The translations under genes were made by a program, and so were the position numbers. The notes under the pieces are model-generated. The model saw nothing but the letters and a program-made list of their open reading frames with translations. It was not told the DNA's origin and ran no database searches. A stretch of 64,000 nucleotides of DNA. Source: a virus. Shown here piece by piece: positions 12,766-32,159 of the stretch. The DNA lies in IMG/VR virus record IMGVR_UViG_3300002835_006866, positions 31,852 through 95,851 of that record; one strand, given 5' to 3'. Every line of letters starts with the position of its first letter. Within the stretch, counting starts at the first letter, position 1.

Positions 12766-13455
12766 ATGAAGTTATCAAATGATACCCTTTCTGTACTAAA
12801 AAACTTTGGTTCTATCAATCAAGGTTTGTTTTTCAAAAAAGGTAACACACTAAAGACAGTTTCTTCTCATAAAAATATTCTCGCTCAAGTGGATATTAAA
12901 GAAGATATTCCTACTGATTTTGGTGTTTATGACCTAAACAATTTTCTTTCTGTAGTTTCTCTACACAAAGATGACCCGTCTTTCGATTTCGACGACAAGC
13001 ATGTGGTGATCGTTGGTAATAAAGGTCGTAGTAAAATCAAATATCGTTTTTGTGATCCAAAAATGATTAACACACCACCCGAAAAAGATATTGCAATGCC
13101 AGAACCAGAAATCAAGTTCGAATTTTCTTCGGAAGATTTCGAATGGATTCTACGTGCTGCGTCTGTTCTATCTTCTCCTCATGTGGCTATTCAATCTGAT
13201 GGTGAAGAAGTTCATATCGTCACACTCGACCTTCAAAATGACTCTTCGCATACCGACTCTCTTAAACTAAATGTTAAGGGTGATGGTAACAAATACAAGA
13301 TGATTTTCAAAACAGAAAACATCACTAAAGTTATGCCCGGTTCTTATGATGTTTTTATTTCTTCAAAAGGAATCTCCCGTTGGAATAACAAAAACATCGC
13401 TCTAAAATACTGGATCACTACTGAATCTGGAAGCAAATTCGAAAGGTCTGAATAA
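12766..13455 (+). CDS. g45: sliding clamp gp45
   Basis: MKLSNDTLSVLKNFGSINQ, FGVYDLNNFL; upstream of g44. Confidence 0.93.
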   Translation: MKLSNDTLSVLKNFGSINQGLFFKKGNTLKTVSSHKNILAQVDIKEDIPTDFGVYDLNNFLSVVSLHKDDPSFDFDDKHVVIVGNKGRSKIKYRFCDPKMINTPPEKDIAMPEPEIKFEFSSEDFEWILRAASVLSSPHVAIQSDGEEVHIVTLDLQNDSSHTDSLKLNVKGDGNKYKMIFKTENITKVMPGSYDVFISSKGISRWNNKNIALKYWITTESGSKFERSE

Positions 13456-13712: not shown

Positions 13713-14645
13713 ATGGAACATCTATTGTGGACAGAGAAGTATCGTCCCAAAACCATCGAAGATTGTATTCTCCCGGAACGGCTAAAGAAGCCGTTTCAGG
13801 AGTACGTCAATCAACAAAACATTCCAAATCTTCTCTTGAGTGGTGGAGCGGGCGTTGGGAAAACAACAGTAGCGAAAGCTCTGTGCAACGAGATCGGCTG
13901 CGACTACATCGTAATCAATGGTTCTGATGAAAGAAACATCGACACATTTCGTGTAACGATTAAGAACTATGCTTCATCTATGTCTTTGTCTGGTGGCCGC
14001 AAGGTCATCATCATTGATGAAGCTGATTATCTGAATCCAAATTCGACACAGCCTGCTCTTCGTAATGCTATAGAAGAGTTTGCAAGTAATTGCTCTTTCA
14101 TCTTTACTTGTAACTACAAGAATCGAATCATTGAGCCGTTGCATAGTCGCTGTGCTGTCGTTGAATTCAATTTGAAGAATGGTGAGAAGGCTAAGATGGC
14201 TTCTCTCTTTTTCATGAGAATTCAATCGATTTTGCAAAGTGAAAAAGTCGAGTATGATGACAAGGTCCTGGCTGAGCTCATCAAGAAACACTTTCCAGAC
14301 TTTCGCCGTATCATCAATGAGCTGCAGCGTTACTCTCAGTTTGGTAAGATCGATACTGGTATCCTGTCGCAGATTGGTGATATAACCCTTACTGAGCTGA
14401 TTGGCTACCTGAAGTCGAAAGACTTTTCTAATGTCCGGAAGTGGGTGGCCAGCCATGACATTGATCCTGCCACCATGTACAGGAAGATTTACGATTCGCT
14501 AAATGAGTTGCTAAAGCCGCAATCCGTTCCGCAGGCCATAATTATTTTAGCGGATTATCAGTATAAAGCGGCATTTGTCGCTGACCAGGAGATAAATACT
14601 TTGGCTATGCTCACGGAAATCATGGTCGATTGCGAGTTTTTATGA
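13713..14645 (+). CDS. g44: clamp loader large subunit gp44
   Basis: LWTEKYRP, GAGVGKTT, IIDEAD, SRC motif. Confidence 0.96.
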   Translation: MEHLLWTEKYRPKTIEDCILPERLKKPFQEYVNQQNIPNLLLSGGAGVGKTTVAKALCNEIGCDYIVINGSDERNIDTFRVTIKNYASSMSLSGGRKVIIIDEADYLNPNSTQPALRNAIEEFASNCSFIFTCNYKNRIIEPLHSRCAVVEFNLKNGEKAKMASLFFMRIQSILQSEKVEYDDKVLAELIKKHFPDFRRIINELQRYSQFGKIDTGILSQIGDITLTELIGYLKSKDFSNVRKWVASHDIDPATMYRKIYDSLNELLKPQSVPQAIIILADYQYKAAFVADQEINTLAMLTEIMVDCEFL

Positions 14646-16205: not shown

Positions 16206-16388
16206 ATGACAAAAGTGAAAAACAAATCTATCAAGTTAGTGAATAAATATACTAAAGAAGAAGTGTACACAAGAGACTATGATAATGTGGTTAAAGACGG
16301 CAACAACGAGTTTATTCGTGTTTTCGAATCACATAATCCTAACCGAACTTTTCTTGTCAACCGACAGGCTTTTGTGGTTGTCAAGTAA
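16206..16388 (+). CDS. hypothetical protein
   Basis: ORF with RBS, in operon context. Confidence 0.55.
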   Translation: MTKVKNKSIKLVNKYTKEEVYTRDYDNVVKDGNNEFIRVFESHNPNRTFLVNRQAFVVVK

Positions 16389-16441
16389 GTAGTGGCGCCT
16401 AATGGGCCACTTTATTAACTTGCTTAAAAAAAGGAGAAAAT

Positions 16442-16921
16442 ATGACTATTACTGGTCGATTTGGTCCAATGGTTCTTAATCAGACATTGGGTTTTGAAAA
16501 TTTTATTCGTGACGTTGAAGCAATTCTAAATGATTCTAGACCAACAAACAATTTTCCACCACATAACATCATCAAAGCAGATGAAAACAAATATGTGGTA
16601 GAACTTGCTGTTGCTGGTTTTAGTAAAGACGAAATTGATATCGAAGTGCAGGATAATACTTTGACTATCAAAGGTGATAAGAAAGTCGGTACACCCGATG
16701 TTCAATACCTACACCGTGGAATTGGCACACGATCTTTTACTAAAGCAATCACAATCGCTGACACCATTGAAGTAAAAGGTGCAGAGTTCAAAGATGGTAT
16801 TCTACGCATTGGACTTGAGAACATCATTCCAGAGCATAAGAAACCACGTAAGATTGAAATTGGCAATGAACTAAAGACGTTTGAACCTCAACTTCTACAA
16901 GAAGAAAAACAAACGGCTTAA
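16442..16921 (+). CDS. hsp20: small heat-shock protein Hsp20 (IbpA-like)
   Basis: NFPPHNI, ELAVAGF, YLHRGI, DGILRIGL, IPEHKKPRKI. Confidence 0.95.
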   Translation: MTITGRFGPMVLNQTLGFENFIRDVEAILNDSRPTNNFPPHNIIKADENKYVVELAVAGFSKDEIDIEVQDNTLTIKGDKKVGTPDVQYLHRGIGTRSFTKAITIADTIEVKGAEFKDGILRIGLENIIPEHKKPRKIEIGNELKTFEPQLLQEEKQTA

Positions 16922-16950
16922 TTTCTTGGGGCTTCGGCCTCATCTATATT

Positions 16951-17784
16951 ATGAACACACCAATAACAATGCTGGTTCATACTCATAAAGAGTACGCTTT
17001 CAATTTTGATTCGAAGTGGGTTAAGTATTTCTACGCCGCATCTTCCGATCCAAATGAATGGCATCCTTCTGTTGGTAATTTTACCAATGTGTACGAAGGA
17101 GAAAACACCATTAAGAAATTTTACAAGTATTATTCACACATAAGTGAATTAGAATTTCTTAAAGCTATGGGTCAACAATCAACAGAATATTATGCTGCTA
17201 ATCACATAGATTCTGATTACATTGGATGTGGTTCATATAGAAGATATTTGGCAGTTGAGAATGGTGTTGGTTATACAGGAGAAAAATTAGAAGTTCCTGC
17301 TAATGAAGATTCATGCAGGTTTTTAACTTCTGATTCTCAGATGAATCGTGCTCTAGATTATCTACAATCTGCTGATGTAGTTTGTAGTAGATTTAGAATG
17401 ATGCACAATTCAATTGAAAGACAATATTTGGAATCACAACTTCCAGAATATTGGTTTCTTTTCAAACAAGGTATAGAAACTCTTTTTCCTGAATACAAAC
17501 GACATATGATTTGGTTCACAGATTATAGTATCTGTAACTATGAATGTGTTTATGTAATGCCAAAATCATGGTTCAAGAAAATGTTTGGTGAATATTTTGC
17601 CATCATGGAATATATTTGGCAAAATTGCGAAGAAGTATATCCGGATAAAAACAAGAGGAGTTGGCACTGCTCTGAACCTTTTCCATGGAGATATCCTGGA
17701 TTTCTAAATGAAAGGTTCGTTCCGTTCTTTATGTACGCTAATGGGCTAAGGAAAATCGAAGTTCCTTTAGCGTTTTTATCATGA
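16951..17784 (+). CDS. DUF4422-like glycosyltransferase-related protein
   Basis: YIGCGSYRRYL and RYPGFLNERF motifs. Confidence 0.55.
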   Translation: MNTPITMLVHTHKEYAFNFDSKWVKYFYAASSDPNEWHPSVGNFTNVYEGENTIKKFYKYYSHISELEFLKAMGQQSTEYYAANHIDSDYIGCGSYRRYLAVENGVGYTGEKLEVPANEDSCRFLTSDSQMNRALDYLQSADVVCSRFRMMHNSIERQYLESQLPEYWFLFKQGIETLFPEYKRHMIWFTDYSICNYECVYVMPKSWFKKMFGEYFAIMEYIWQNCEEVYPDKNKRSWHCSEPFPWRYPGFLNERFVPFFMYANGLRKIEVPLAFLS

Positions 17785-18197
17785 AAGAAAAATATCTTGA
17801 ATCTTATATGGGTGTGGCTGAAATCTTTGCTAGACAGTCATCGGCAAAGAGATTGCAAGTTGGTGCCATTGTAGTCAAAGATGATCGTATCATTAGTATA
17901 GGTTACAATGGAATGCCATCAGGTTGGGATAATGTGTGTGAAAATATTAATGAAGATGGTACGTTAAAAACAAAACCAGAGGTGCTTCATGCTGAAATGA
18001 ATGCTATAGCCAAATTAGCAAGAAGTAACGAATCTGGTTTAAACTCCACTATGTTCATCACACATGCACCATGCATTGAGTGTGCTAAATTGATATATCA
18101 ATCTGGCATTAAAAAAGTTTTTTATAAAAATGAATACAGATCACAAGATGGTATAGATTTTCTTAAAAAATGTAATATCGATATTAATAAACTATAA
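17781..18197 (+). CDS. cd: dCMP deaminase
   Basis: GYNG, HAEMNA, PCIEC. Confidence 0.93.
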   Translation: MKEKYLESYMGVAEIFARQSSAKRLQVGAIVVKDDRIISIGYNGMPSGWDNVCENINEDGTLKTKPEVLHAEMNAIAKLARSNESGLNSTMFITHAPCIECAKLIYQSGIKKVFYKNEYRSQDGIDFLKKCNIDINKL

Positions 18198-18206
18198 GGA
18201 GAAGTT

Positions 18207-18647
18207 ATGTCGCAGGTAAAAGGTACTAAAACTGAATTGAATTTGAAAGAAGCATTTGCTGGTGAATCGCAGGCGAATCGTCGTTATTTGTATTTCGCTA
18301 ACATGTGTGATATTGCTGGCGCTCAAGAAGTAGCAGCTGTTTTCCGCCATACTGCTGAGGGAGAAACAGGTCATGCTCACGGTCATATGGAATACTTGAT
18401 CGAAGGCGGTGCTGGTGATCCTGCAACAGGAATGCCTGCAAAGAGCATTGTTCAGGCTCTCGAATCATCCATCGAAGGTGAAACTCATGAATATACCGAC
18501 ATGTATCCAGGTATGGCTAAAACTGCTCGTGAAGAAGGCTTCGAAGAAATTGCCGATTGGTTTGAAACTCTAGCAAAAGCAGAACGCAGCCATGCAGGTA
18601 AGTTTAAGAAAACTCTTGAGGCATACAAACAAGAAATTGGTGCTTAA
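18207..18647 (+). CDS. rubrerythrin (short ferritin-like form)
   Basis: [36 protein letters not shown]. Confidence 0.92.
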
Positions 18648-18704
18648 TTGCCACTTTTTTGAATTGTATATTGTATAATATTATTTTTATTGTTAAGGAA
18701 AAAT

Positions 18705-18929
18705 ATGAACATTCGTGAACTAGCAAAAAAACTTGCTATCGATAACAAAATGATTCATGCTGAAAAGTATGATTTATATTATCGTGATTATGATAACATG
18801 GTAGAAGTTTTGGGTTGGGTTCAAGACCCTTTGATTAATGCTTCTGATTTCAATGGAAGAGAAATGCTCATTCCAAATCGGTGGGTTACATTGGGAGTTC
18901 TAGATGCTAATATGGGAGTCAATGTATGA
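18705..18929 (+). CDS. hypothetical protein
   Basis: ORF with AAGGA RBS before ATG. Confidence 0.55.
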   Translation: MNIRELAKKLAIDNKMIHAEKYDLYYRDYDNMVEVLGWVQDPLINASDFNGREMLIPNRWVTLGVLDANMGVNV

Positions 18930-19225
18930 CCGTTAAATTAATTACACTTAAAACTAACCACACTCTCATCGGAGAAATTGTTGATGAAGGTAATGTTGGT
19001 GTAAAAATAAAACAACCAGTTCAAGTTGTTGTTCAGCCAACAAAAGATGGCCCAATGATGGGTTTTGTTCCGTTTGTTGACTTTAGTGAGGACTTTAAAA
19101 CTGGATTTGTAATTAATAATAACGACATTTTATTTACAAGTTCGCCTGTAAGAGAACTCGAAAATCAGTATAATAAGATGTTCGGTTCTGGTATCGAAAT
19201 CGCTTCTTCAATTCCTAAATTATAA
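18926..19225 (+). CDS. conserved T4-like hypothetical protein upstream of g43
   Basis: Pattern VKLITLK...NQYNKMFGSGI; position before g43. Confidence 0.65.
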   Translation: MTVKLITLKTNHTLIGEIVDEGNVGVKIKQPVQVVVQPTKDGPMMGFVPFVDFSEDFKTGFVINNNDILFTSSPVRELENQYNKMFGSGIEIASSIPKL

Positions 19226-19228
19226 TGA

Positions 19229-21781
19229 ATGACAAATAATTATTATACAAATGTTTCATGCCTCGGAAGTAATATTCTCTTCCGAGGTGTTAAAGACGGC
19301 CGGCGTGTTAAGTATAAAGTTGCTTACACGCCGACTTTGTTTTTGAAATCAAATAAACCTAGCAAGTATAAATCTCTTGATGGTTTGAGTTTAGAGACAA
19401 TAAAGTTTCAGACCATTCGTGAATCGAGAGACTTTGTTCGTCAGTATAATGACGTTGAAGGATTTAAAATCTTTGGTAATGACCGTTATGAATACGCTTT
19501 CATTGCTGATACATTCAAAGGTGACATTAATTGGAACTTTGATGATCTTTCTATTGCTATAATCGATATTGAAGTTGGATCAGAAAATGGTTTTCCTGAC
19601 CCATACAAAGTCACAGAGCCTATCACTGCCATTGGAATAAAATATATTAATGGAAAAATGATTGTCTATGGTTGTGGTGACTATGACAATCAACGTGATG
19701 ATGTTACCTACATCAAGTGTAAGAGTGAAATCGACCTGTGTAAAAAATTCATCGATGATTGGCAACAAAACTGTCCTGATGCAATCAGTGGATGGAATAT
19801 TCGTTTCTTTGATATTCCATATCTGGTCAATCGAATCAATAACCTTTTGGGTGAAGAAGAAGTAAAGAAACTTTCACCATGGGGTATCATAAACACAAAA
19901 AAGATTACAAAGATTAATCGTGACCTTGATGTTTATGATTTACTTGGTGTTCCAACACTAGATTATATCGAACTGTATAGATGGTACGCTCCGGCTGGTA
20001 AGTCACAAGAATCTTATCGGCTAGATCACATCGCCAGCGTTGAACTGAATGAGAACAAACTTTCATATGACGAATATGAAAACTTACATTCATTATATCG
20101 TTTAAACTTTCAAAAGTTTATTGATTATAACATTAAAGACGTTGAGCTTGTACTGAAGTTGGAAGAAAAACTTAAATTGATTGAATTGGGTTTGACTTTG
20201 GCTTACGATACAAAAACAAACTATGAGGACATTTTCGCACAAACGAGAATGTGGGATTCTTTGATCTATAATTATCTTTTAGACAAAGATATCATTGTTC
20301 CACCAAAAACGGTAAAAAATAAGAGTTCGGCTTTTGAGGGTGCTTATGTGAAAGAACCCCAAGTCGGTGTTCATGAATATGTTGCTTCATTTGACTTGAA
20401 CTCTCTCTATCCACACTTGATGATGATGTACAACATTTCACCAGAAACTCTTATTGATACAGAGGATTACACGGATGAAATGCGTGATATTCTTTCAGCA
20501 GGCGTAAATGTCGAGAAACTATTAATGAGACAGGTTGACACTTCAAAACTCATTGATGCTACAATTACACCAAACGGTCAACTTTTTAGAACTGACTTTC
20601 AAGGTTTTCTTCCTAAGATGTTGGAAGAAATGTATGAAGGTCGTAAAAAATTTAAGAAGATGATGTTGCAGGCGAAACAAGAATATGAAAAAGAAAATGA
20701 CGATGAAAAGAAATATGAAATCGAAAAAAGAATTGCACGATATGATAATCTTCAACTAGCGAAGAAAGTCTCCCTCAATTCTGCTTACGGTGCTCTTGGT
20801 AGTCAATACTTCCGTTTTTATGATTTGAGAATGGCACTTGGCGTTACTACAGCGGGCCAATTATCCATTCGTTGGATTGAAAATAAACTAAATGAATATT
20901 TAAATAAGTTATTAAGTACAAATAATGAAGATTACGTTATCGCCTCAGACACAGATTCGATTTATCTTAATCTTGGTCCGCTTGTTAAAAAGGTGTATGT
21001 TGCGGGAGAAAAAGTTCCTTCATCTAGAATCAAGATCATCGAGTTCATGGATAAAGTCTGCGAGCAGAAGATACAACCGTTCATTGATGAAAGTTACAAG
21101 GATCTTGCTACGTATGTTCGTGCATACGCCCAAAAAATGCAAATGAAACGTGAAGCATTATCTGATCGTGGCATTTGGACTGCAAAGAAAAGATATATTC
21201 TAAACGTACACAACAATGAAGGTGTTCAATATAAAGAACCTCAAATGAAAGTTATGGGTATGGAGATGGTTAAATCTTCAACGCCTGCTGCTATTCGGGA
21301 AAAAATGAAACAGGCTATTCACATTATGTTGAATGGTAAAGAAGGTGATATTCATGACTTCATTGAAGAATTTAGAGAGAAGTTTAAACAATTGCCTCCT
21401 GAAGAAGTATCTTTTCCCAGAGGATTGAATGGTTTGAAAGATTATTCTGATACCGCTACTCTATATAAAAAAGGGACACCGATTCATGTCAAGGGTGCTT
21501 TACTATACAACAATCGGTTGGAATCTTTGAAGTTAGATAAAAAATATCCAAGGATTCAAGAAGGTGAGAAAATTAAATTTACTTACCTAAAACAACCGAA
21601 TCCTTTAAAAGATATGGTCATTTCTTATCCAACGAGATTGCCACCAGAGTTTGGTCTCCATGATTTTGTTGATTATGATACGCAGTTTGAAAAGTCATTT
21701 TTGGAACCAATTAAAGTGATTCTCGACTGTATGGGATGGACAACAGAAAAAACCAATTCATTAGACAGCTTTTTCTCATGA
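19229..21781 (+). CDS. g43: family B DNA polymerase gp43
   Basis: Exonuclease DIE, SFDLNSLYP, KVSLNSAYG, SDTDS; C-terminal clamp peptide SLDSFF. Confidence 0.98.
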   Translation: MTNNYYTNVSCLGSNILFRGVKDGRRVKYKVAYTPTLFLKSNKPSKYKSLDGLSLETIKFQTIRESRDFVRQYNDVEGFKIFGNDRYEYAFIADTFKGDINWNFDDLSIAIIDIEVGSENGFPDPYKVTEPITAIGIKYINGKMIVYGCGDYDNQRDDVTYIKCKSEIDLCKKFIDDWQQNCPDAISGWNIRFFDIPYLVNRINNLLGEEEVKKLSPWGIINTKKITKINRDLDVYDLLGVPTLDYIELYRWYAPAGKSQESYRLDHIASVELNENKLSYDEYENLHSLYRLNFQKFIDYNIKDVELVLKLEEKLKLIELGLTLAYDTKTNYEDIFAQTRMWDSLIYNYLLDKDIIVPPKTVKNKSSAFEGAYVKEPQVGVHEYVASFDLNSLYPHLMMMYNISPETLIDTEDYTDEMRDILSAGVNVEKLLMRQVDTSKLIDATITPNGQLFRTDFQGFLPKMLEEMYEGRKKFKKMMLQAKQEYEKENDDEKKYEIEKRIARYDNLQLAKKVSLNSAYGALGSQYFRFYDLRMALGVTTAGQLSIRWIENKLNEYLNKLLSTNNEDYVIASDTDSIYLNLGPLVKKVYVAGEKVPSSRIKIIEFMDKVCEQKIQPFIDESYKDLATYVRAYAQKMQMKREALSDRGIWTAKKRYILNVHNNEGVQYKEPQMKVMGMEMVKSSTPAAIREKMKQAIHIMLNGKEGDIHDFIEEFREKFKQLPPEEVSFPRGLNGLKDYSDTATLYKKGTPIHVKGALLYNNRLESLKLDKKYPRIQEGEKIKFTYLKQPNPLKDMVISYPTRLPPEFGLHDFVDYDTQFEKSFLEPIKVILDCMGWTTEKTNSLDSFFS

Positions 21782-22686
21782 CACAATTTATATTACCTTT
21801 TTTGACCGCCATTGCTCTTTCGGGCGTGGCGGCTTATTATTCGGTAATAGGACTTGCACAGATATTTCCTGGATCTTATTGGCCGGTTATAATCATGGGC
21901 ACAGTTTTAGAAATAGCAAAATTGGTGACAGTATCATGGTTACATAATCATTGGAAAGAAACATTCTCTGCACTCAAGTTTTATTTTTTGATTGCAGTGA
22001 TATTGCTTATGGCAATTACTTCAATGGGTATTTTTGGTTACCTATCAAAGGCCCATATTGAACACTCATCAAACATATCACCTTTAGCCGCAAAGGTAGA
22101 AATTTATGACAAAAAGATTGAAGCACTCCAAGCGACCATTGAGAGGAATGACAAGAACCTTAGTCAGTATGATGCATCTGTCGATGAAATTATGGGCAGG
22201 TCGAAAGACGAAAGGGGCGCCGAGAGGGCATCACAGATACGCAAGGCCCAACAGAAAGACCGTGAGAGAATCGCTTCTGAAAATGCAAGGCTTCAAAAAG
22301 AAATACAAAACCTCACGGAAGAAAAACTCCCTTTATCCTTGGAAGTTAAGAAGGCTGAATCAGATTTGGGACCTATCAAATACGTGGCAGAAGTAGTATA
22401 TGGTACACAAGACCGTGATTTGATTGATAAAGCAGTTCGACTGGTAATTTTTATTATTATTATCGTGTTTGATCCACTTGCTGTTTTGCTGTTAGTAGCA
22501 TCAAATCAAACTTATAGAAAATATGCAGCTGATAAAGTGGACATTTTACCAGAAATTAAGGCAAGAAAGAGGAAAAAGATTGACAAACAGCCCGCTAATA
22601 GTTTAGACTCTTTTTTTGTTGATACAGAACACGAAGTAATACACAAATCAAAAATTGCCAATTTTGAGGATGATTCAAAACCATGA
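21778..22686 (+). CDS. four-TM coiled-coil membrane protein with C-terminal clamp-binding-like peptide
   Basis: Three N-terminal TM segments, coiled coil, fourth TM, basic tail containing NSLDSFF. Confidence 0.7.
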   Translation: MTQFILPFLTAIALSGVAAYYSVIGLAQIFPGSYWPVIIMGTVLEIAKLVTVSWLHNHWKETFSALKFYFLIAVILLMAITSMGIFGYLSKAHIEHSSNISPLAAKVEIYDKKIEALQATIERNDKNLSQYDASVDEIMGRSKDERGAERASQIRKAQQKDRERIASENARLQKEIQNLTEEKLPLSLEVKKAESDLGPIKYVAEVVYGTQDRDLIDKAVRLVIFIIIIVFDPLAVLLLVASNQTYRKYAADKVDILPEIKARKRKKIDKQPANSLDSFFVDTEHEVIHKSKIANFEDDSKP

Positions 22687-23297
22687 GGGAAGTAATTGAA
22701 CTTTTTCCTGTTCCTCTGTATAGAAATAATATTTTCGTTGATGAGGACACAAGACGCTTTGTAATGAACTGTAAATACGTAAGAAACGATAATGGTTTGT
22801 TCACTGATGCCAAACTTCTCGATCTTCCAGAACTTTCTGATCTCAAACACCTGATTCTCAGAGAAGTTGAATATTATGTATATGATTATTTGAAAGTTGT
22901 AAAAAATGTTGAGGTATACATTACATCATCATGGGCAGTAAAACACCAGAGAGGTGATTGGGCACAACCACATCACCATAGTAATAGTATTTTCAGTGGT
23001 GTTTTATATGTTAATGTCGATGAAAAAAGTGGTAACATAAAGTTTGTTCGTGATTCTAGGGCATATAATGTTTGGCCAATTTCTGTTTGTCCTGATGTTG
23101 AGGAAGAAAACAGAATTAGTTCTGTTGATTGGGTTGTAACGCCAAAAATAAATGACATACTAATTTTTCCATCTCATCTAACACACGAAGTTTCGAGAAA
23201 TATTTCAGGTATCGAAAGATGTGTTATCGCCTTTAATATTTTCTTTAAAGGAACTCTTGGTGATACGGAAACTTTACTGATTCTAAACGGAGAATAA
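22683..23297 (+). CDS. putative 2OG-Fe(II) oxygenase (TIGR02466-like)
   Basis: LFPVPLY, SWAV, HHHSNSIFSGVLY, FPSHLTHEV, IAFN. Confidence 0.8.
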   Translation: MREVIELFPVPLYRNNIFVDEDTRRFVMNCKYVRNDNGLFTDAKLLDLPELSDLKHLILREVEYYVYDYLKVVKNVEVYITSSWAVKHQRGDWAQPHHHSNSIFSGVLYVNVDEKSGNIKFVRDSRAYNVWPISVCPDVEEENRISSVDWVVTPKINDILIFPSHLTHEVSRNISGIERCVIAFNIFFKGTLGDTETLLILNGE

Positions 23298-23298
23298 A

Positions 23299-24360
23299 AT
23301 GAGTTTACTTGAAAAGATTAAAAAGAATTCTACAATCAAAGATAGTTCTATTCTATCTAAATCAAAGTTGTTTACAGAAAAAGATATGATTCCAACTGCC
23401 ATTCCTATGGTGAATGTTGCTTTGTCAGGAAGATTGGATGGTGGTCTTACTCCTGGTTTAACAATGTGGGCAGGTCCCTCTAAACACTTTAAGACAGCCT
23501 TCTCTTTGTTGATGGCTAAGTCCTATATGGACAAGTATGATGAATCTGTTTTGTTGTTTTATGATTCCGAATTTGGAACTCCACAGTCATACTTTGATAC
23601 CTTTGGTATTGACACTGACAGAGTGATTCATTCACCAATTACTGATATTGAACAATTAAAGTTTGATATTATGGCTCAGTTGGAAAATATCAATCGAGGT
23701 GATCGTGTTATCATTGTCATTGATTCGATTGGTAATCTCGCATCAAAGAAAGAAGTTGAAGATGCTCTTGAACAGAAGTCTGTTGCTGATATGTCACGAG
23801 CAAAACAAGTAAAAAGTTTATTCCGCATGATTACACCACATTTAAATCTAAAAGATATTCCTATGGTTGTGGTGAATCACACTTATAAAGAAATCGGAAT
23901 GTTTCCTAAAGATATCGTTGGTGGTGGAACAGGTTCTTACTATTCTGCTGACAATATCTTCATTTTAGGTCGTCAACAAGAAAAAGAAGGATCAGAAATT
24001 GTTGGATACAATTTCATCATTAACGTAGAGAAATCAAGATATGTTCGAGAAAAATCTAAAATACCTGTTACTGTATCTTTTGATGGTGGTATTAACAAGT
24101 GGTCTGGCCTTATGGATATCGCTCTCGAAGGCAATTTTGTAACCAAACCAAGTAATGGTTGGTATGCTAAAGTTGACCAGGAGACTGGTGAAGTCTTAGA
24201 TAAGAAACGCTTTGCTGATACACAAACAGAAGAATTTTGGAGAGATATTTTAGAAAATAATTCATTCAAAGACTATGTGAAGAAAAGATATGAAATCACT
24301 TATAGCAGTATTATGGGACAAGATGACATTTTGGAAGAAGTCGAAGAAAATGAAGCTTGA
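23299..24360 (+). CDS. uvsX: RecA-like recombinase UvsX
   Basis: AGPSKHFKT, YDSEFG, DSIGNLASKKE, GGGTG. Confidence 0.96.
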   Translation: MSLLEKIKKNSTIKDSSILSKSKLFTEKDMIPTAIPMVNVALSGRLDGGLTPGLTMWAGPSKHFKTAFSLLMAKSYMDKYDESVLLFYDSEFGTPQSYFDTFGIDTDRVIHSPITDIEQLKFDIMAQLENINRGDRVIIVIDSIGNLASKKEVEDALEQKSVADMSRAKQVKSLFRMITPHLNLKDIPMVVVNHTYKEIGMFPKDIVGGGTGSYYSADNIFILGRQQEKEGSEIVGYNFIINVEKSRYVREKSKIPVTVSFDGGINKWSGLMDIALEGNFVTKPSNGWYAKVDQETGEVLDKKRFADTQTEEFWRDILENNSFKDYVKKRYEITYSSIMGQDDILEEVEENEA

Positions 24361-24667
24361 AGAAGATATTGATTATAAATTCATAAACTTCAGTCATACC
24401 GAAGTTATTGGTATAGAGTTGTTAATGGAAGAATATCAAGGTACAATGTACCATTACCATAAAGTTGGTGCAGTTGAAGATGAAGGTGTAGCTAAACTTA
24501 GATTCAGTTATGTCATCATCACTCCTGGAAAACATGAGATGCAGGCCTTGTTAGAAGATGAAAATTTTCATACAATAATGGGGGATATTCTCAGTAAAAT
24601 TATTTTGGATTATAAACAACATGAATCGACTGGAACAAACGATACTGAAGAATTTGATATACAATGA
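24350..24667 (+). CDS. hypothetical protein at the gp40 position
   Basis: Small acidic ORF between uvsX and g41, where T4 has gene 40. Confidence 0.55.
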   Translation: MKLEEDIDYKFINFSHTEVIGIELLMEEYQGTMYHYHKVGAVEDEGVAKLRFSYVIITPGKHEMQALLEDENFHTIMGDILSKIILDYKQHESTGTNDTEEFDIQ

Positions 24668-26024
24668 GGCCTATACCAGAAAAGTATTACCATTCATAAG
24701 ATCAGATTATTTTTCAGACAACACAGAAAAAATTGTATTCAAAGAAGTTTTTGATTTTGTAAACAAGTATAAAAATCTTCCAACATACGAATCCCTTGTA
24801 ATCAATTTTACCGAAAGTAAAACTCTTACTGGCGACCAGGTCAAAGGATCAATAGACTTACTAAAAGAACTCCACTCTAATCGAGAAGAAAAAGTCGAAG
24901 AAAAATGGCTTATTGAACAAACTGAAAAATTTTGTCAAGATAAAGCCATTTACAATGCTATCATGGAATCTGTCCAGATTCTTGATGATAGAAACAAAGG
25001 TAAAACAAAAGGAGAAATTCCAAAACTTCTGAGTGATGCCCTTGGCGTTTCTTTTGACCAACACATCGGTCATGATTACATGAATGACTACGATTCACGA
25101 TATGATTTTTATCATAAAGTAGAAGCTAAAGTTCCATTCGATCTCGATATATTCAATAAAATTACAAAGGGTGGCTTACCGGTCAAAACTTTGAACATTG
25201 CTTTGGCTGGCACAGGCGTTGGTAAATCTTTATTCATGTGTCATGTGGCCGCATCTTGTTTATCTCAGGGTAAAAATGTTTTATATATTACTCTTGAAAT
25301 GGCCGAAGAAAGAATTGCTGAAAGAATTGATGCAAATCTTTTAAATATTGATTTGAATGAACTGAGAACAATCAGTAAAACAGACTACGACAAAAAGTTT
25401 CAAGTATTAAGAAACAAGGCAAATGGCAAATTAATCATCAAAGAATATCCAACTGCTTCTGCCTCTGCTCTACATTTCAGGGCTTTGCTTAATGAATTGG
25501 CTCTGAAAAAGAATTTTACTCCAGAAATTATCTTCATTGATTATTTGAACATCTGTTCATCTTCTAGAATAAAACCTGGCGGAAGTGTAAACTCTTACAC
25601 ATATGTAAAATCTATTGCTGAAGAGCTTCGTGGCTTGGCAGTTGAATTCAATGTGCCAATTGTATCTGCAACACAAACCACAAGAAGTGGTTTTACAAAC
25701 TCTGATCCAGGTCTTGAAGATACTTCAGAATCTTTTGGTTTGCCTGCAACTGCTGACTTTATGTTTGCTTTGATTACAAATGAAGAGTTGCAACAATTGA
25801 ATCAAATTATGGTAAAACAATTGAAAAATCGTTATTCTGACCCAAATGATTATAAAAGATTTGTTGTGGGGGTTGACAGGGCTAAAATGAGACTGTATGA
25901 TACGGAGCCTGATGCACAAAATGGAATTACAGATTCGGGGCAACCTGATGATACGCCTCCGTTGAATACATTTGGTAATCGTGAACGTAAATTTAATAAA
26001 AATTTTGGTGGTCTAAAAGTATGA
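24621..26024 (+). CDS. g41: replicative helicase gp41
   Basis: AGTGVGKS, ITLEMAE, IDYLN, SATQTTR, ESFGLPATAD. Confidence 0.96.
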   Translation: MNRLEQTILKNLIYNEAYTRKVLPFIRSDYFSDNTEKIVFKEVFDFVNKYKNLPTYESLVINFTESKTLTGDQVKGSIDLLKELHSNREEKVEEKWLIEQTEKFCQDKAIYNAIMESVQILDDRNKGKTKGEIPKLLSDALGVSFDQHIGHDYMNDYDSRYDFYHKVEAKVPFDLDIFNKITKGGLPVKTLNIALAGTGVGKSLFMCHVAASCLSQGKNVLYITLEMAEERIAERIDANLLNIDLNELRTISKTDYDKKFQVLRNKANGKLIIKEYPTASASALHFRALLNELALKKNFTPEIIFIDYLNICSSSRIKPGGSVNSYTYVKSIAEELRGLAVEFNVPIVSATQTTRSGFTNSDPGLEDTSESFGLPATADFMFALITNEELQQLNQIMVKQLKNRYSDPNDYKRFVVGVDRAKMRLYDTEPDAQNGITDSGQPDDTPPLNTFGNRERKFNKNFGGLKV

Positions 26025-27136
26025 GTTTGACTAAGGAACAGGCAGTTTACTGTGCAAATGTTTTTTCAAACTATTTCGATAAGTTTTCGAGAATAGATGA
26101 GTACATGAGAGAACAGAAAAAGGCTTCTATGGCAGAGAGGCCTTTTGTTTTGCCTGGTATGGGACCAGAAGAAGATTTGTTTTCCGATTTTTCTGTTTCG
26201 CCAGAGAAAATGAATTTCGAAATTGTAGAACTGCCTCAAGAGAGATGGGACATTTATTTGAATATGATTTCTTCACATTCAAACATGACCAATATTCCCG
26301 GTCGATCCCTCAGATTGGCAGTCTTAGAAACTACAACGAACAAGTGGTGTGGTTTTATTCGTCTTGGTTCTCCTGTAATTAACTGTAAACCAAGAAATGA
26401 GATGTTGGGTCAAGTGTTCACACAAGTCGATGGTGGTGCTCAAAGATTCAATCAATGTGCTATGATGGGTTTTGTGATTGTACCCGCACAGCCTTTTGGA
26501 TTTAATTATCTTGGTGGTAAATTGATGGCATCTATTTGCACGACACATGAAGTTCGTGAAATGCTAAATAAAAAATACAATATGACCACATGTTTGTTTG
26601 AAACGACTAGTCTGTATGGTTCTACTAAGGCCGTATCACAGTATGATGGCATGAAACCTTATATTCGTTATAAAGGTTTGACCGACAGTGATTTTCTTCC
26701 CATGTTACATGGTAAAACTTATACAGACCTAAAAGAGTATATTGAAAATATAATTGGTGAGCCATTGGCACCAGAAAGTGCCTCTAGTAGAAAACTGAAA
26801 ATATCTAATGCAATCGTTTCACATATCAATGTTGCTCTGAAGGGAACACCAGAGGGTGCTAAGTTTAAACAGACGATTGAAAATGCCAAAAATCTAAACG
26901 AACAAAAGAGATATTATGTTTCAGATTATGGATTCAGTAACATGATTGACTTTGTGAATGGTAAATCGAATACCTTGACTAAAGGTGAAAACTATGATAA
27001 ATTCTATCTGAAGAATGTGATTGAATGGTGGAGAAAAAAGGCCACGACAAGATACGAAAATCTCAAAACGGAGAATCGTCTGAGAAATGATATTGAAGTC
27101 TGGACTGGCGACACTGAACTAGACATTATACGATAG
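26021..27136 (+). CDS. DUF4338 / Druantia DruA-like protein (paralogue 2)
   Basis: PGRSLRL, IVPAQPFGFNYLGGKLMA, ETTSLYG, SQYD. Confidence 0.65.
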   Translation: MSLTKEQAVYCANVFSNYFDKFSRIDEYMREQKKASMAERPFVLPGMGPEEDLFSDFSVSPEKMNFEIVELPQERWDIYLNMISSHSNMTNIPGRSLRLAVLETTTNKWCGFIRLGSPVINCKPRNEMLGQVFTQVDGGAQRFNQCAMMGFVIVPAQPFGFNYLGGKLMASICTTHEVREMLNKKYNMTTCLFETTSLYGSTKAVSQYDGMKPYIRYKGLTDSDFLPMLHGKTYTDLKEYIENIIGEPLAPESASSRKLKISNAIVSHINVALKGTPEGAKFKQTIENAKNLNEQKRYYVSDYGFSNMIDFVNGKSNTLTKGENYDKFYLKNVIEWWRKKATTRYENLKTENRLRNDIEVWTGDTELDIIR

Positions 27137-27137
27137 G

Positions 27138-27145
27138 CATAAATA
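27138..27145 (+). promoter_or_regulatory. T4-type late promoter
   Basis: CATAAATA in the intergenic gap (T4 consensus TATAAATA). Confidence 0.65.
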
Positions 27146-31457: not shown

Positions 31458-32159
31458 ATGAAAATTGCATTATGTCTATCTGGGCAAGCCAGATGCTTTG
31501 ACAAAGTATATGAATACGTAAAGAAAAACCTTTTAGATAAACACGATATCACTGTTTTTTGCCACGTATGGGATTTCTCTGGTGTTGAAAAGTTAAAAGA
31601 ACTTTACAAGCCACAAAACATAATTGTGGAACCACCTATTACGCCAGACTTATCAAAGTACACTAGAGTTCCACCACCACAACCAAACTGGAAAGTTAAA
31701 GATCCAGCTCTTTCAACTTATGCTCAATTTTATTCGCTGAATATGGCAAATAAATTGAAGATGCAATATGAGAAAGAAAATAAAATGGTGTTTGATTGGG
31801 TCATTCGTTCGAGATATGACTTTACTTTGAATGTAGAAATTCTTTTTGAAGAATTAGACAATCAAAAACTTTACATACCGAATTGTAGAAGAACACCAGG
31901 TCGAGATTTTGGAAATGACCAGTTTGCTTTTTCTTCTTCAAGAAACATGGACAAATACTGTAATGTTTTTAACCGCATCGATGAGTTTTATGATTTAGGT
32001 ACAACGATGATCGGTGAAGAGATGATGAGCATGAATTGGAAAACAACTGGCCTTGTTGGTGAGAACTTAGTTTATTGTGATATGAATCATCCTTTTCCAC
32101 CAGGTCCACACAATGGAACTTGGCACTCACTAATGAGAGATGATTTTGAAAAGTGGTAA
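31458..32159 (+). CDS. glycosyltransferase-like hypothetical protein (paralogue of previous)
   Basis: KIALCLSGQAR, FDWVIRSRYD, NDQFAF. Confidence 0.6.
   Translation: MKIALCLSGQARCFDKVYEYVKKNLLDKHDITVFCHVWDFSGVEKLKELYKPQNIIVEPPITPDLSKYTRVPPPQPNWKVKDPALSTYAQFYSLNMANKLKMQYEKENKMVFDWVIRSRYDFTLNVEILFEELDNQKLYIPNCRRTPGRDFGNDQFAFSSSRNMDKYCNVFNRIDEFYDLGTTMIGEEMMSMNWKTTGLVGENLVYCDMNHPFPPGPHNGTWHSLMRDDFEKW

Follow-up and report, generated by a model that had tools for sequence, protein, structure and literature searches.

Why would an integral membrane protein, encoded directly behind the DNA polymerase of a phage, carry in its tail the very peptide with which that polymerase ends? The question is raised by a 64,000-nucleotide stretch of viral DNA (positions 31,852 to 95,851 of IMG/VR record IMGVR_UViG_3300002835_006866; hereafter the window, numbered from its first letter), which makes up the 3' two-thirds of a 95.8-kb contig from a T4-like myovirus. 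Every gene examined in the window lies on the + strand. The peptide, NSLDSFF, stands at the end of the polymerase gp43 and recurs in the tail of a 302-residue protein with four predicted transmembrane (TM) segments. On the strength of sequence comparison and structure prediction, this protein is proposed, with moderate confidence, to be a membrane-anchored client of the sliding clamp gp45, whose tail would dock on the clamp where the inner membrane faces the cytoplasm. The argument turns on the following features.

19229-21781, + strand: gp43, T4-type family-B DNA polymerase of 850 residues, recognized as an open reading frame (ORF) and by its match to gp43 of Pelagibacter phage Mosig (53% identity, E 1.1e-143)
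21755-21778, + strand: C-terminal NSLDSFFS of gp43, the presumed clamp-binding epitope (NSLDSFF itself at 21755-21775)
21778-22686, + strand: gene of the membrane protein, 302 residues, delimited by an ATGA overlap with the gp43 stop and by the alignment of homologues
22597-22623, + strand: NSLDSFF-V-D, residues 274-282 of the membrane protein, a candidate short linear motif for docking on gp45, with the seven residues NSLDSFF as in the gp43 tail
12766-13455, + strand: gp45, the sliding clamp that presumably reads the peptide (phrog_223, 7e-67), which also matches the clamp structures of RB69 (1b77, E 1.6e-21) and T4 (1czd, E 1.3e-20)
1434-1973, + strand: gp55 late sigma factor (phrog_234, 2.6e-61)

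The initial annotation had taken it as given that T4 gp43, gp55 and gp33 dock on gp45 through their C-termini, and this premise is documented: the hydrophobic-acidic C-termini of the three proteins are clamp-binding epitopes and are interchangeable, and that of gp55 sits on a divergent, probably unstructured linker (PMC2988020). The tails can be read in the T4 record, where gp43 ends ...EEKASLDFLFG and gp55 ends ...SPSLDFLYEAND (...SLDFLYEAND). A degenerate DNA pattern for L-D-F-L-[FY] has five sites in T4, namely in genes 43 and 55, at codons 231-235 of gene 30, at 20761-20775, and under gene 7, the last being antisense and rejected as spurious. The site in gene 30 is instructive. T4 ligase carries an internal LDFLF in a disordered 26-residue loop, which binds the gp45 pocket as a short helix with a Kd of about 10.7 uM and a crystal structure on record (PMC6212786); an internal motif can therefore bind gp45.

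In the window, gp43 ends ...EKTNSLDSFFS (...GWTTEKTNSLDSFFS), and the tail of the membrane protein reads ...KARKRKKIDKQPANSLDSFFVD... (...DKQPANSLDSFFVDTEHEV...) through to its C-terminus ...KARKRKKIDKQPANSLDSFFVDTEHEVIHKSKIANFEDDSKP, so that the second NSLDSFF, at 22597-22617, lies 22 residues short of the end. The initial annotation had placed both copies correctly and had noted that their serine codons differ, which is also right. The codons are AAT TCA TTA GAC AGC TTT TTC in gp43 and AAT AGT TTA GAC TCT TTT TTT in the membrane protein: position by position, neither Ser codon shares a base with its counterpart (TCA/AGC versus AGT/TCT), and the last Phe codon is TTC in one and TTT in the other. 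The peptide in the membrane protein is thus no DNA copy. A recent DNA duplication or gene conversion was ruled out by these differences together with the persistence of the peptide through synonymous turnover, and the earlier claim of conservation at the protein level is upheld. A chance match is excluded as well, since the expected count of NSLDSFF at the amino-acid composition of the contig is 8.4e-7 in a 302-residue protein and 8.9e-5 over all 31,448 residues of the 139 + strand ORFs of the 95.8-kb contig.

Is the peptide kept by selection? To answer this, column entropies were profiled along the tail in 118 distinct close homologues; they are listed here in chain order.

Linker after TM4: 1.4-2.9 bits
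22558-22578, + strand: basic island KARKRKK, residues 261-267 (a KKKK island in relatives), of low entropy, at most 0.45 bits at the four K columns compared with 1.7-2.9 bits in the flanking linker
Stretch between the KKKK island and the motif: variable, 1.7-2.6 bits
Motif S-L-E-S-F-F: 0.55, 0.25, 0.12, 0.97, 0.00 and 0.32 bits
Residue after FF (V): variable, 1.8 bits
D after this residue: 0.07 bits
22636-22656, + strand: distal motif VIHKSKI (consensus V-I-P-K-D-K-I), of near-zero entropy, with about 0 bits at the I, K and I columns of I-P-K-D-K-I

The same picture emerged from the DNA. Among 48 distinct DNA versions of the motif in the membrane gene, the Leu is retained in 44 through five Leu codons, a Glu or Asp in all 48, the first Phe likewise in all 48 (TTT in 13, TTC in 35) and the second Phe in 44, while the eight positions ahead of the motif vary freely except for the K that closes the basic island (-8) and, mostly, a P (-2). 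Low entropy on L-E-x-F-F-x-D, a drifting linker and synonymous turnover with the amino acids kept point to selection on the peptide itself. As expected of a clamp peptide, it stands in a segment that the AlphaFold2 model leaves flexible, and it is conserved amid a diverging linker by both entropy and codon turnover. The prediction that an L-[DE]-x-F-F motif would be conserved in homologues was borne out down to about 50% identity, with a variable linker around it, and diverged sub-clades have conservative variants (TLESFY, SVESFI, SIESFL, SVESFM, SVELFT and SIESLI). Judged by these alignments, the tail peptide is a genuine short linear motif under selection and belongs to the same type as the clamp epitopes of the phage's own polymerase and sigma factor. 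The KARKRKK island parallels a KRKKK/KKKKK run ahead of the gp55 epitope. The distal motif is kept by some relatives that have no LExFF (L066-72, L179/180, P0213 and P0265).

The link with the polymerase holds across relatives. Wherever the DNA upstream of a relative's membrane gene is available, it contains gp43, which either adjoins the membrane gene or is set apart from it by a single insert encoding about 185 residues, and this order is kept down to a relative with 43% identity. Throughout the paired loci, gp43 ends with [ST][LI]E[SDNAG]FF and one further residue, often as QYTLESFF, which we take to have the spacing of the PCNA-interacting peptide (PIP) box, QxxLxxFF. The membrane protein and gp43 share the same peptide core in all of these pairs, just as NSLDSFF of the window's membrane protein matches the epitope of its cognate polymerase. 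The suggested co-variation between the two tails comes down, at the level of single residues, to D/D in the window versus E/E elsewhere. A relative with 88% identity (P0002) also has LDSFF in its membrane protein. When metagenomes were scanned for further D/D loci, the closest relative was 83% identical and none was nearer.

The sigma factor carries a related ending. The gp55 C-terminus is ...NKRKKKENKTKGLEKFIDEI (...GLEKFIDEI), with GLEKFI at 1944-1961, and sits behind a basic linker similar to that of the membrane protein; in relatives, gp55 ends ...KKKKKEKKSEGLEQFLDDDVE or ...GLDNFLDGEAE. The wider pattern [STG][LI][DE]xF[FLI] has 3 matches in the + strand ORFs of the contig, with about 1 expected, and these are gp43, gp55 and the membrane protein. 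All three matches are within 30 residues of the C-terminus, a zone that holds 13% of the residues, and in a complete 172-kb relative the motif occurs in the same three proteins and in two unexplained ORFs. No gp33 was found on the 95.8-kb contig. As for phage Mosig, its gp43 ends ...ASLEAFFG, and its gp55 ORF (L206:1492-2058, - strand) ends ...TKTVKKKTKKK, a basic run with no hydrophobic epitope after it, unlike gp55 of the window and its relatives.

Several other proteins of the relatives bear the tag. A Mom-family DNA-modification protein (PF25680, 2.1e-57), encoded 3' of the membrane gene, ends ...STLEKFFVESL or ...PSLEGFFT; a PD-(D/E)XK-domain protein (PF20472), also 3' of the membrane gene, ends ...SPLEYFFKNNEETHVNT; and a 423-residue protein encoded after gp41 ends ...KKSTLEVFFE. 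The best match of the last is phrog_12517, of unknown function (5.2e-10), followed by a weaker methyltransferase match (phrog_498, 5e-8) and a Pfam N6_N4_Mtase match below the cut-off. The genes of these carriers lie in relatives at L029:3949-4764, L029:4767-5219, L058:4968-6236 and L069:3012-3815, and none of them is in the window. The tagged Mom-family, PD-(D/E)XK and weakly methyltransferase-like proteins are candidates for DNA-modification enzymes that ride the clamp. Taken together, these endings mark [ST]LExFF, by sequence, as a portable tag within this clade. The identified carriers otherwise act on DNA or RNA polymerase, as clamp clients should, which makes the membrane protein the odd one among them.

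It may be asked whether the tag is read by gp45 at all, or whether it docks a different partner, such as another hub protein, a chaperone or a protease adaptor that reads a degron-like tail. In favour of another partner, the gp33 of relatives has no such motif, and the KKKTKKK ending of Mosig gp55, without an epitope, suggests that clamp coupling in these marine and freshwater phages may differ from that in T4. However, the best-anchored carriers, gp43 and gp55, are orthologues of proteins whose clamp epitopes are proven in T4, the motif resembles both SLDFLF/LDFLF of T4 and the PIP-like QxxLxxFF, the other carriers in relatives are DNA-acting enzymes, and a gp45 orthologue is encoded by the contig. 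A partner other than gp45 is accordingly regarded as quite improbable. The host beta-clamp motif, QL[SD]LF, was also judged a poorer fit to the peptide than the T4/PIP type.

A clamp peptide has to share the compartment of the clamp, the cytoplasm. The architecture of the protein was predicted from hydropathy, from loop charges in 70 homologues and from an AlphaFold2 model of the single chain (70-sequence alignment; mean predicted local distance difference test score, pLDDT, of 77). The following parts were delimited in addition to the tail.

21787-22044, + strand: TM1 (residues 4-27), TM2 (34-54) and TM3 (66-89), from hydropathy, loop charges, AlphaFold2 and invariant columns
22045-22449, + strand: long antiparallel helical hairpin, residues 90-224, predicted to be periplasmic, from AlphaFold2 (pLDDT mostly above 80)
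22450-22518, + strand: TM4, residues 225-247, with invariant F231-D232-P233, from the alignment, AlphaFold2 and hydropathy

The four TM segments of the initial annotation are supported by hydropathy and AlphaFold2 alike; the modelled helices span residues 2-29, 31-57, 64-141, 145-208 and 213-254, TM3 and TM4 extending into the long antiparallel hairpin. The tail is basic, as had been claimed, with 11 K/R in 53 residues including KARKRKK. In the model, residues 257-302 have a pLDDT below 50, except for one helical turn at 276-280, which is exactly L-D-S-F-F. Among the 70 homologues, K and R never occur in the TM1-TM2 loop, and they are enriched both in the TM2-TM3 loop and over the 15 residues that follow TM4. 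By the positive-inside rule this would place the tail inside, as had been proposed, and the predicted topology is N-in/C-in, with the hairpin in the periplasm and the tail in the cytoplasm; the KARKRKK run likewise favours a cytoplasmic tail. K48 in TM2 is invariant and E45 nearly so. The invariant residues K48, T81, S82, G84, G87, H93, G198, P199, Y202 and F231-D232-P233 cluster in the membrane and at the base of the hairpin, which suggests that the core has a conserved job of its own.

No family in Pfam, PHROGs or the Atlas scored above threshold for the membrane protein, a fold search of the PDB returned no match at E <= 0.001 but only generic coiled-coil hairpins, and one of BFVD returned only uncharacterised viral homologues. 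The weak, sub-threshold matches to Tetraspanin, DUF4407, DivIC and Rz-spanin families are driven by TM and coiled-coil composition. DUF4407 (PF14362) and the tetraspanins do share four TM helices and a large TM3-TM4 loop with the protein. DUF4407 was rejected: the window protein has no match at E <= 0.1, 10 of the 70 relatives have sub-threshold ones (best E 1.3e-4), and the name 'putative DUF4407' occurs only as an automatic label on neighbouring Atlas clusters. No functional literature on DUF4407 was found. Tetraspanin (PF00335), with sub-threshold Pfam matches in 52 of the 70 relatives, was rejected at 24.4 bits against a cut-off of 32.1; the large loop of tetraspanins (EC2) is disulfide-bonded, whereas that of the membrane protein is a cysteine-free helical hairpin. 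An Rz-type i-spanin was rejected because the match to phrog_739 is only partial (E 2.6e-4, residues 71-165) and the protein has four TM segments. T4 Imm is, like this protein, a small early membrane protein encoded right after gene 43; it differs in having 83 residues, no long hairpin and no clamp-type peptide (tail ...QPNQVIIIREKE). It was rejected as well, as no such family appeared in the PHROG and Pfam scans, the tails are unrelated and only the position after gene 43 is shared.

The family is very large. Close relatives amount to at least 7,849 clusters at 90% identity in metagenomes, mostly placed after gp43, and a full HMMER search yielded 4,307 representatives at 50% clustering, in which only residues 5-247 are conserved. 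Matches in bacterial metagenome-assembled genomes look like phage contigs. The nearest cultured relative is the homologue in Pelagibacter phage Mosig, with 40% identity. The 43% relative is still 3' of gp43 (ending SSLSAFFS) and has a different short tail. Tails in the distant family range from about 60 to about 570 residues. Distant members P0122-P0271 have long acidic tails with other recurrent modules, among them YEPDDGPLTxxQIEQI, WVADVGEKPT, HPYLN..F.HF, a zinc ribbon CxxC...PGIGxFCPNKxCDV and a C-terminal ...SGEYDxDxLSDxEREQI.... The wider family thus looks, from its sequences, like one membrane scaffold with exchangeable docking tails. As the distant tails differ and the LExFF motif is lineage-specific, the clamp-type peptide would have been gained within the window's clade on an older membrane scaffold, whose ancestral job would have been something else.

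Could the protein, then, simply be an envelope protein, acting in superinfection exclusion, lysis timing or in the manner of a spanin, as a positional analogue of T4 imm with an LExFF that is incidental or periplasmic? The place of imm directly downstream of gene 43 in T4 speaks for it, as do the Mosig homologue, which adjoins a glucosaminidase gene near a GH108 gene, the weak match to the Rz-like spanin PHROG over TM3 and the coiled coil, and the fact that the family is conserved in the membrane core and hairpin and not in the tail. However, an incidental peptide would not hold L, E, F and F over the 48 DNA versions while the linker drifts, nor would it agree with the tail of the cognate polymerase in each sub-clade. 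A tail so rich in K and R is unfavourable for export, the protein does not resemble Imm, and an i-spanin has one TM segment only. An envelope role of the core would, moreover, be compatible with a clamp-docking tail. As a full account of the protein, this is the least probable of the readings considered here.

The mechanism that would follow from a membrane-anchored gp45 client can be outlined as follows. The protein would sit in the inner membrane with both termini in the cytoplasm, and two long helices would form a hairpin, about 130 residues in all, that projects into the periplasm. Its disordered 53-residue tail would present a basic KKKK-type spacer, the [ST]-L-[DE]-x-F-F-x-D peptide and the V-I-x-K-x-K-I peptide. 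The middle one may insert in the hydrophobic pocket of gp45, as the T4 epitopes do, so that gp45, free or loaded on DNA, would be captured at the cytoplasmic face of the inner membrane. There, the membrane protein would compete with gp43 and gp55 for the three pockets of the clamp trimer, and the outcome might be the anchoring of forks or of late-transcription complexes, or a buffering of the clamp pool. That the tail lies in the cytoplasm, that it binds gp45 and with what consequence is what we infer; the reasons for naming gp45 are that the peptide is shared with gp43 and gp55 and conserved, that T4 ligase sets a precedent for an internal motif, and that a gp45 orthologue is encoded.

Known clients of T4 gp45 have much in common with such a protein. 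They too carry a short hydrophobic-acidic peptide on a flexible, variable linker (S-L-D-F-L-F/Y compared with S-L-D-S-F-F), and the peptide is common to the cognate polymerase and sigma factor; the helical turn modelled on LDSFF recalls the short helix on the motif of T4 ligase. The aromatic spacing differs, L-D-F-L-F in T4 and L-D-x-F-F in the membrane protein, the latter being nearer to the LxxFF of the PIP box. The T4 clients are also soluble DNA or RNA enzymes or transcription factors, in contrast to an integral membrane protein with no recognisable DNA-acting domain. To our knowledge, all T4-type clamp clients are soluble and work on DNA or RNA polymerase, and nothing relevant was found in the literature on a membrane-bound gp45 partner. 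The nearest functional analogues of the proposed role are p1 and p16.7 of phi29, early phage membrane proteins that organise viral DNA replication at the membrane and for which a role as anchors of the replication machinery on the membrane of the bacterium was proposed (PMC4974454). In both cases the anchoring would run through protein-protein contacts. There is no kinship in sequence or architecture, however: the phi29 proteins have a single TM segment or are membrane-associated, contact the terminal protein and single-stranded DNA, and serve a protein-primed replication without a sliding clamp in a Gram-positive host.

The same peptide could make the protein a regulator and not an anchor. 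By filling clamp pockets at the membrane, the protein would titrate the pool of gp45 or set its timing, and could delay late transcription, which depends on gp55-gp45, or limit the loading of polymerase, perhaps cued by sensing through the periplasmic hairpin. This possibility draws on the same sequence evidence as the tether, on the competition of T4 clients for the same sites through interchangeable epitopes (PMC2988020), and on the conserved core and juxtamembrane residues (K48, H93, G198-P199, Y202 and D232-P233), which suggest more than an inert anchor. On the other hand, the sequence features fit sequestration and tethering alike, and a membrane-borne peptide of micromolar affinity may fail to deplete a clamp that is abundant. 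Regulation in place of anchoring is thus thought rather unlikely.

A number of observations weigh against the membrane-anchored gp45 client. The motif is lineage-specific, and more distant homologues bear other tails; the Mosig homologue, beside its glucosaminidase and GH108 genes, has no LExFF. Co-variation with gp43 is weak at the level of residues, and D/D appears to be a single event. In the 63%-identical sub-clade L066-72, the membrane protein has SIESLISS while its gp43 keeps TLESFFG. The gp33 of relatives (L086, L087) ends ...LNMLKVKGNRLPI or ...ERLNMLKVKGNRLPI, without LExFF. In the membrane protein, the motif is 22 residues from the C-terminus, whereas the epitopes of gp43 and gp55 are terminal or nearly so. 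The topology follows from the positive-inside rule only. The wider pattern [STG][LI][DE]xF[FLI], counted in the + strand ORFs, was written after the three carriers had been seen, so that the count speaks of specificity and is no independent test. Finally, docking on gp45 is deduced from sequence and AlphaFold2, and we hold it to be only somewhat more probable than its absence.

Two side observations belong with these endings. The ending of gp33 in relatives resembles that of Mosig gp33, ...KIEETGKLPV. In the 172-kb relative, a 140-residue ORF (G001:C1:79785-80204, + strand) ends ...NPNPITIDFFLERIR and may be a further carrier of the tag.

When would the membrane protein be made? The initial annotation had it overlap gp43, which is correct (ATGA), but a start at the first in-frame ATG, 21736, is less likely than one at ATG 21778. 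The latter is most probably the start, giving 302 residues, because homologues of 299-306 residues align from that Met with 96-100% coverage. No terminator-like site was seen between gp43 and the membrane gene, a promoter and terminator scan having yielded no more hits than shuffled sequences, and no late-promoter-like NATAAATA site was found from 16242 to 27138. Given the overlap of start and stop and the lack of such sites in these scans, the membrane protein should be made together with the replication and recombination proteins; by its sequence context, the gene is translationally coupled to gp43 within a gp43/UvsX/gp41 replication block.

A nested ORF of 96 residues, very basic, was noted in the +1 frame inside the membrane gene (22106-22396, + strand), over the coiled-coil part and on a patch with a G+C content of 0.44-0.48 compared with 0.31-0.40. 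In 50 of 50 distinct relatives, an open +1 frame of at least 91 codons occupies the corresponding position, and only 2.6% of synonymous-codon shuffles of the window's membrane gene reach 98 codons in that frame. Synonymous diversity at the nested ORF is 0.28 versus 0.37-0.45, a difference that is ambiguous since the region is rich in two-fold-degenerate residues. The nested ORF has no lipobox Cys, as the o-spanin lipoprotein that partners an i-spanin would.

The surroundings are those of a T4-type replication region, with the gene order given below.

Upstream, + strand: a dCMP-deaminase-like ORF, a 146-residue ORF (18207-18647), two small ORFs, gp43 and the membrane protein
Downstream, + strand: 2-oxoglutarate (2OG)-Fe(II) oxygenase, a UvsX-sized ORF, a small ORF and the gp41 helicase
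13713-14645, + strand: gp44
22683-23297, + strand: 2OG-Fe(II) oxygenase (PF13759, 1.2e-19)
Downstream of the membrane gene, + strand: gp41 helicase (phrog_19, 5.9e-129)
26021-27136, + strand: 371-residue protein after gp41, matching the Druantia DruA family PF14236 (5.9e-10, above cut-off) and phrog_19197 (5.9e-139)

In about half of the relatives (for example L157:959-1498), the gene that separates gp43 from the membrane gene encodes an Asp/Arg beta-hydroxylase-like cupin (PF05118, 28 bits). Considered together with the 2OG-Fe(II) oxygenase 3' of the membrane gene in the window, it suggests that the positions flanking the membrane gene are a slot in which oxygenase genes vary. The 371-residue DruA-family protein is, by sequence, a defence-system-like protein within the phage replication block.

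What would a clamp epitope on a membrane protein mean for these phages? A conserved integral membrane carrier of such an epitope would be the first candidate for a link between clamp and membrane in a T4-like phage, and the [ST]LExFF tag offers a handle for listing clamp clients in uncultured phages. A more speculative step, which we consider possible but doubtful, is that the protein is a transmembrane coupler, whose core and periplasmic hairpin sense the envelope (the cues might be the state of the cell wall, superinfection or the site of prohead assembly) and whose cytoplasmic tail holds or withholds gp45 there. If this were true, gp45-loaded phage DNA would be held, or gp45 withheld, at an envelope site. 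T4-like phages would then have a molecular link to explain how their replicating DNA attaches to the membrane, as has long been postulated, and how late transcription is controlled in space. The uncharacterised phage family that shares the membrane core is very large, and its tails bear differing recurrent peptide modules; were the coupler to hold, this wider family would be a general phage platform for bringing cytoplasmic partners to the membrane.

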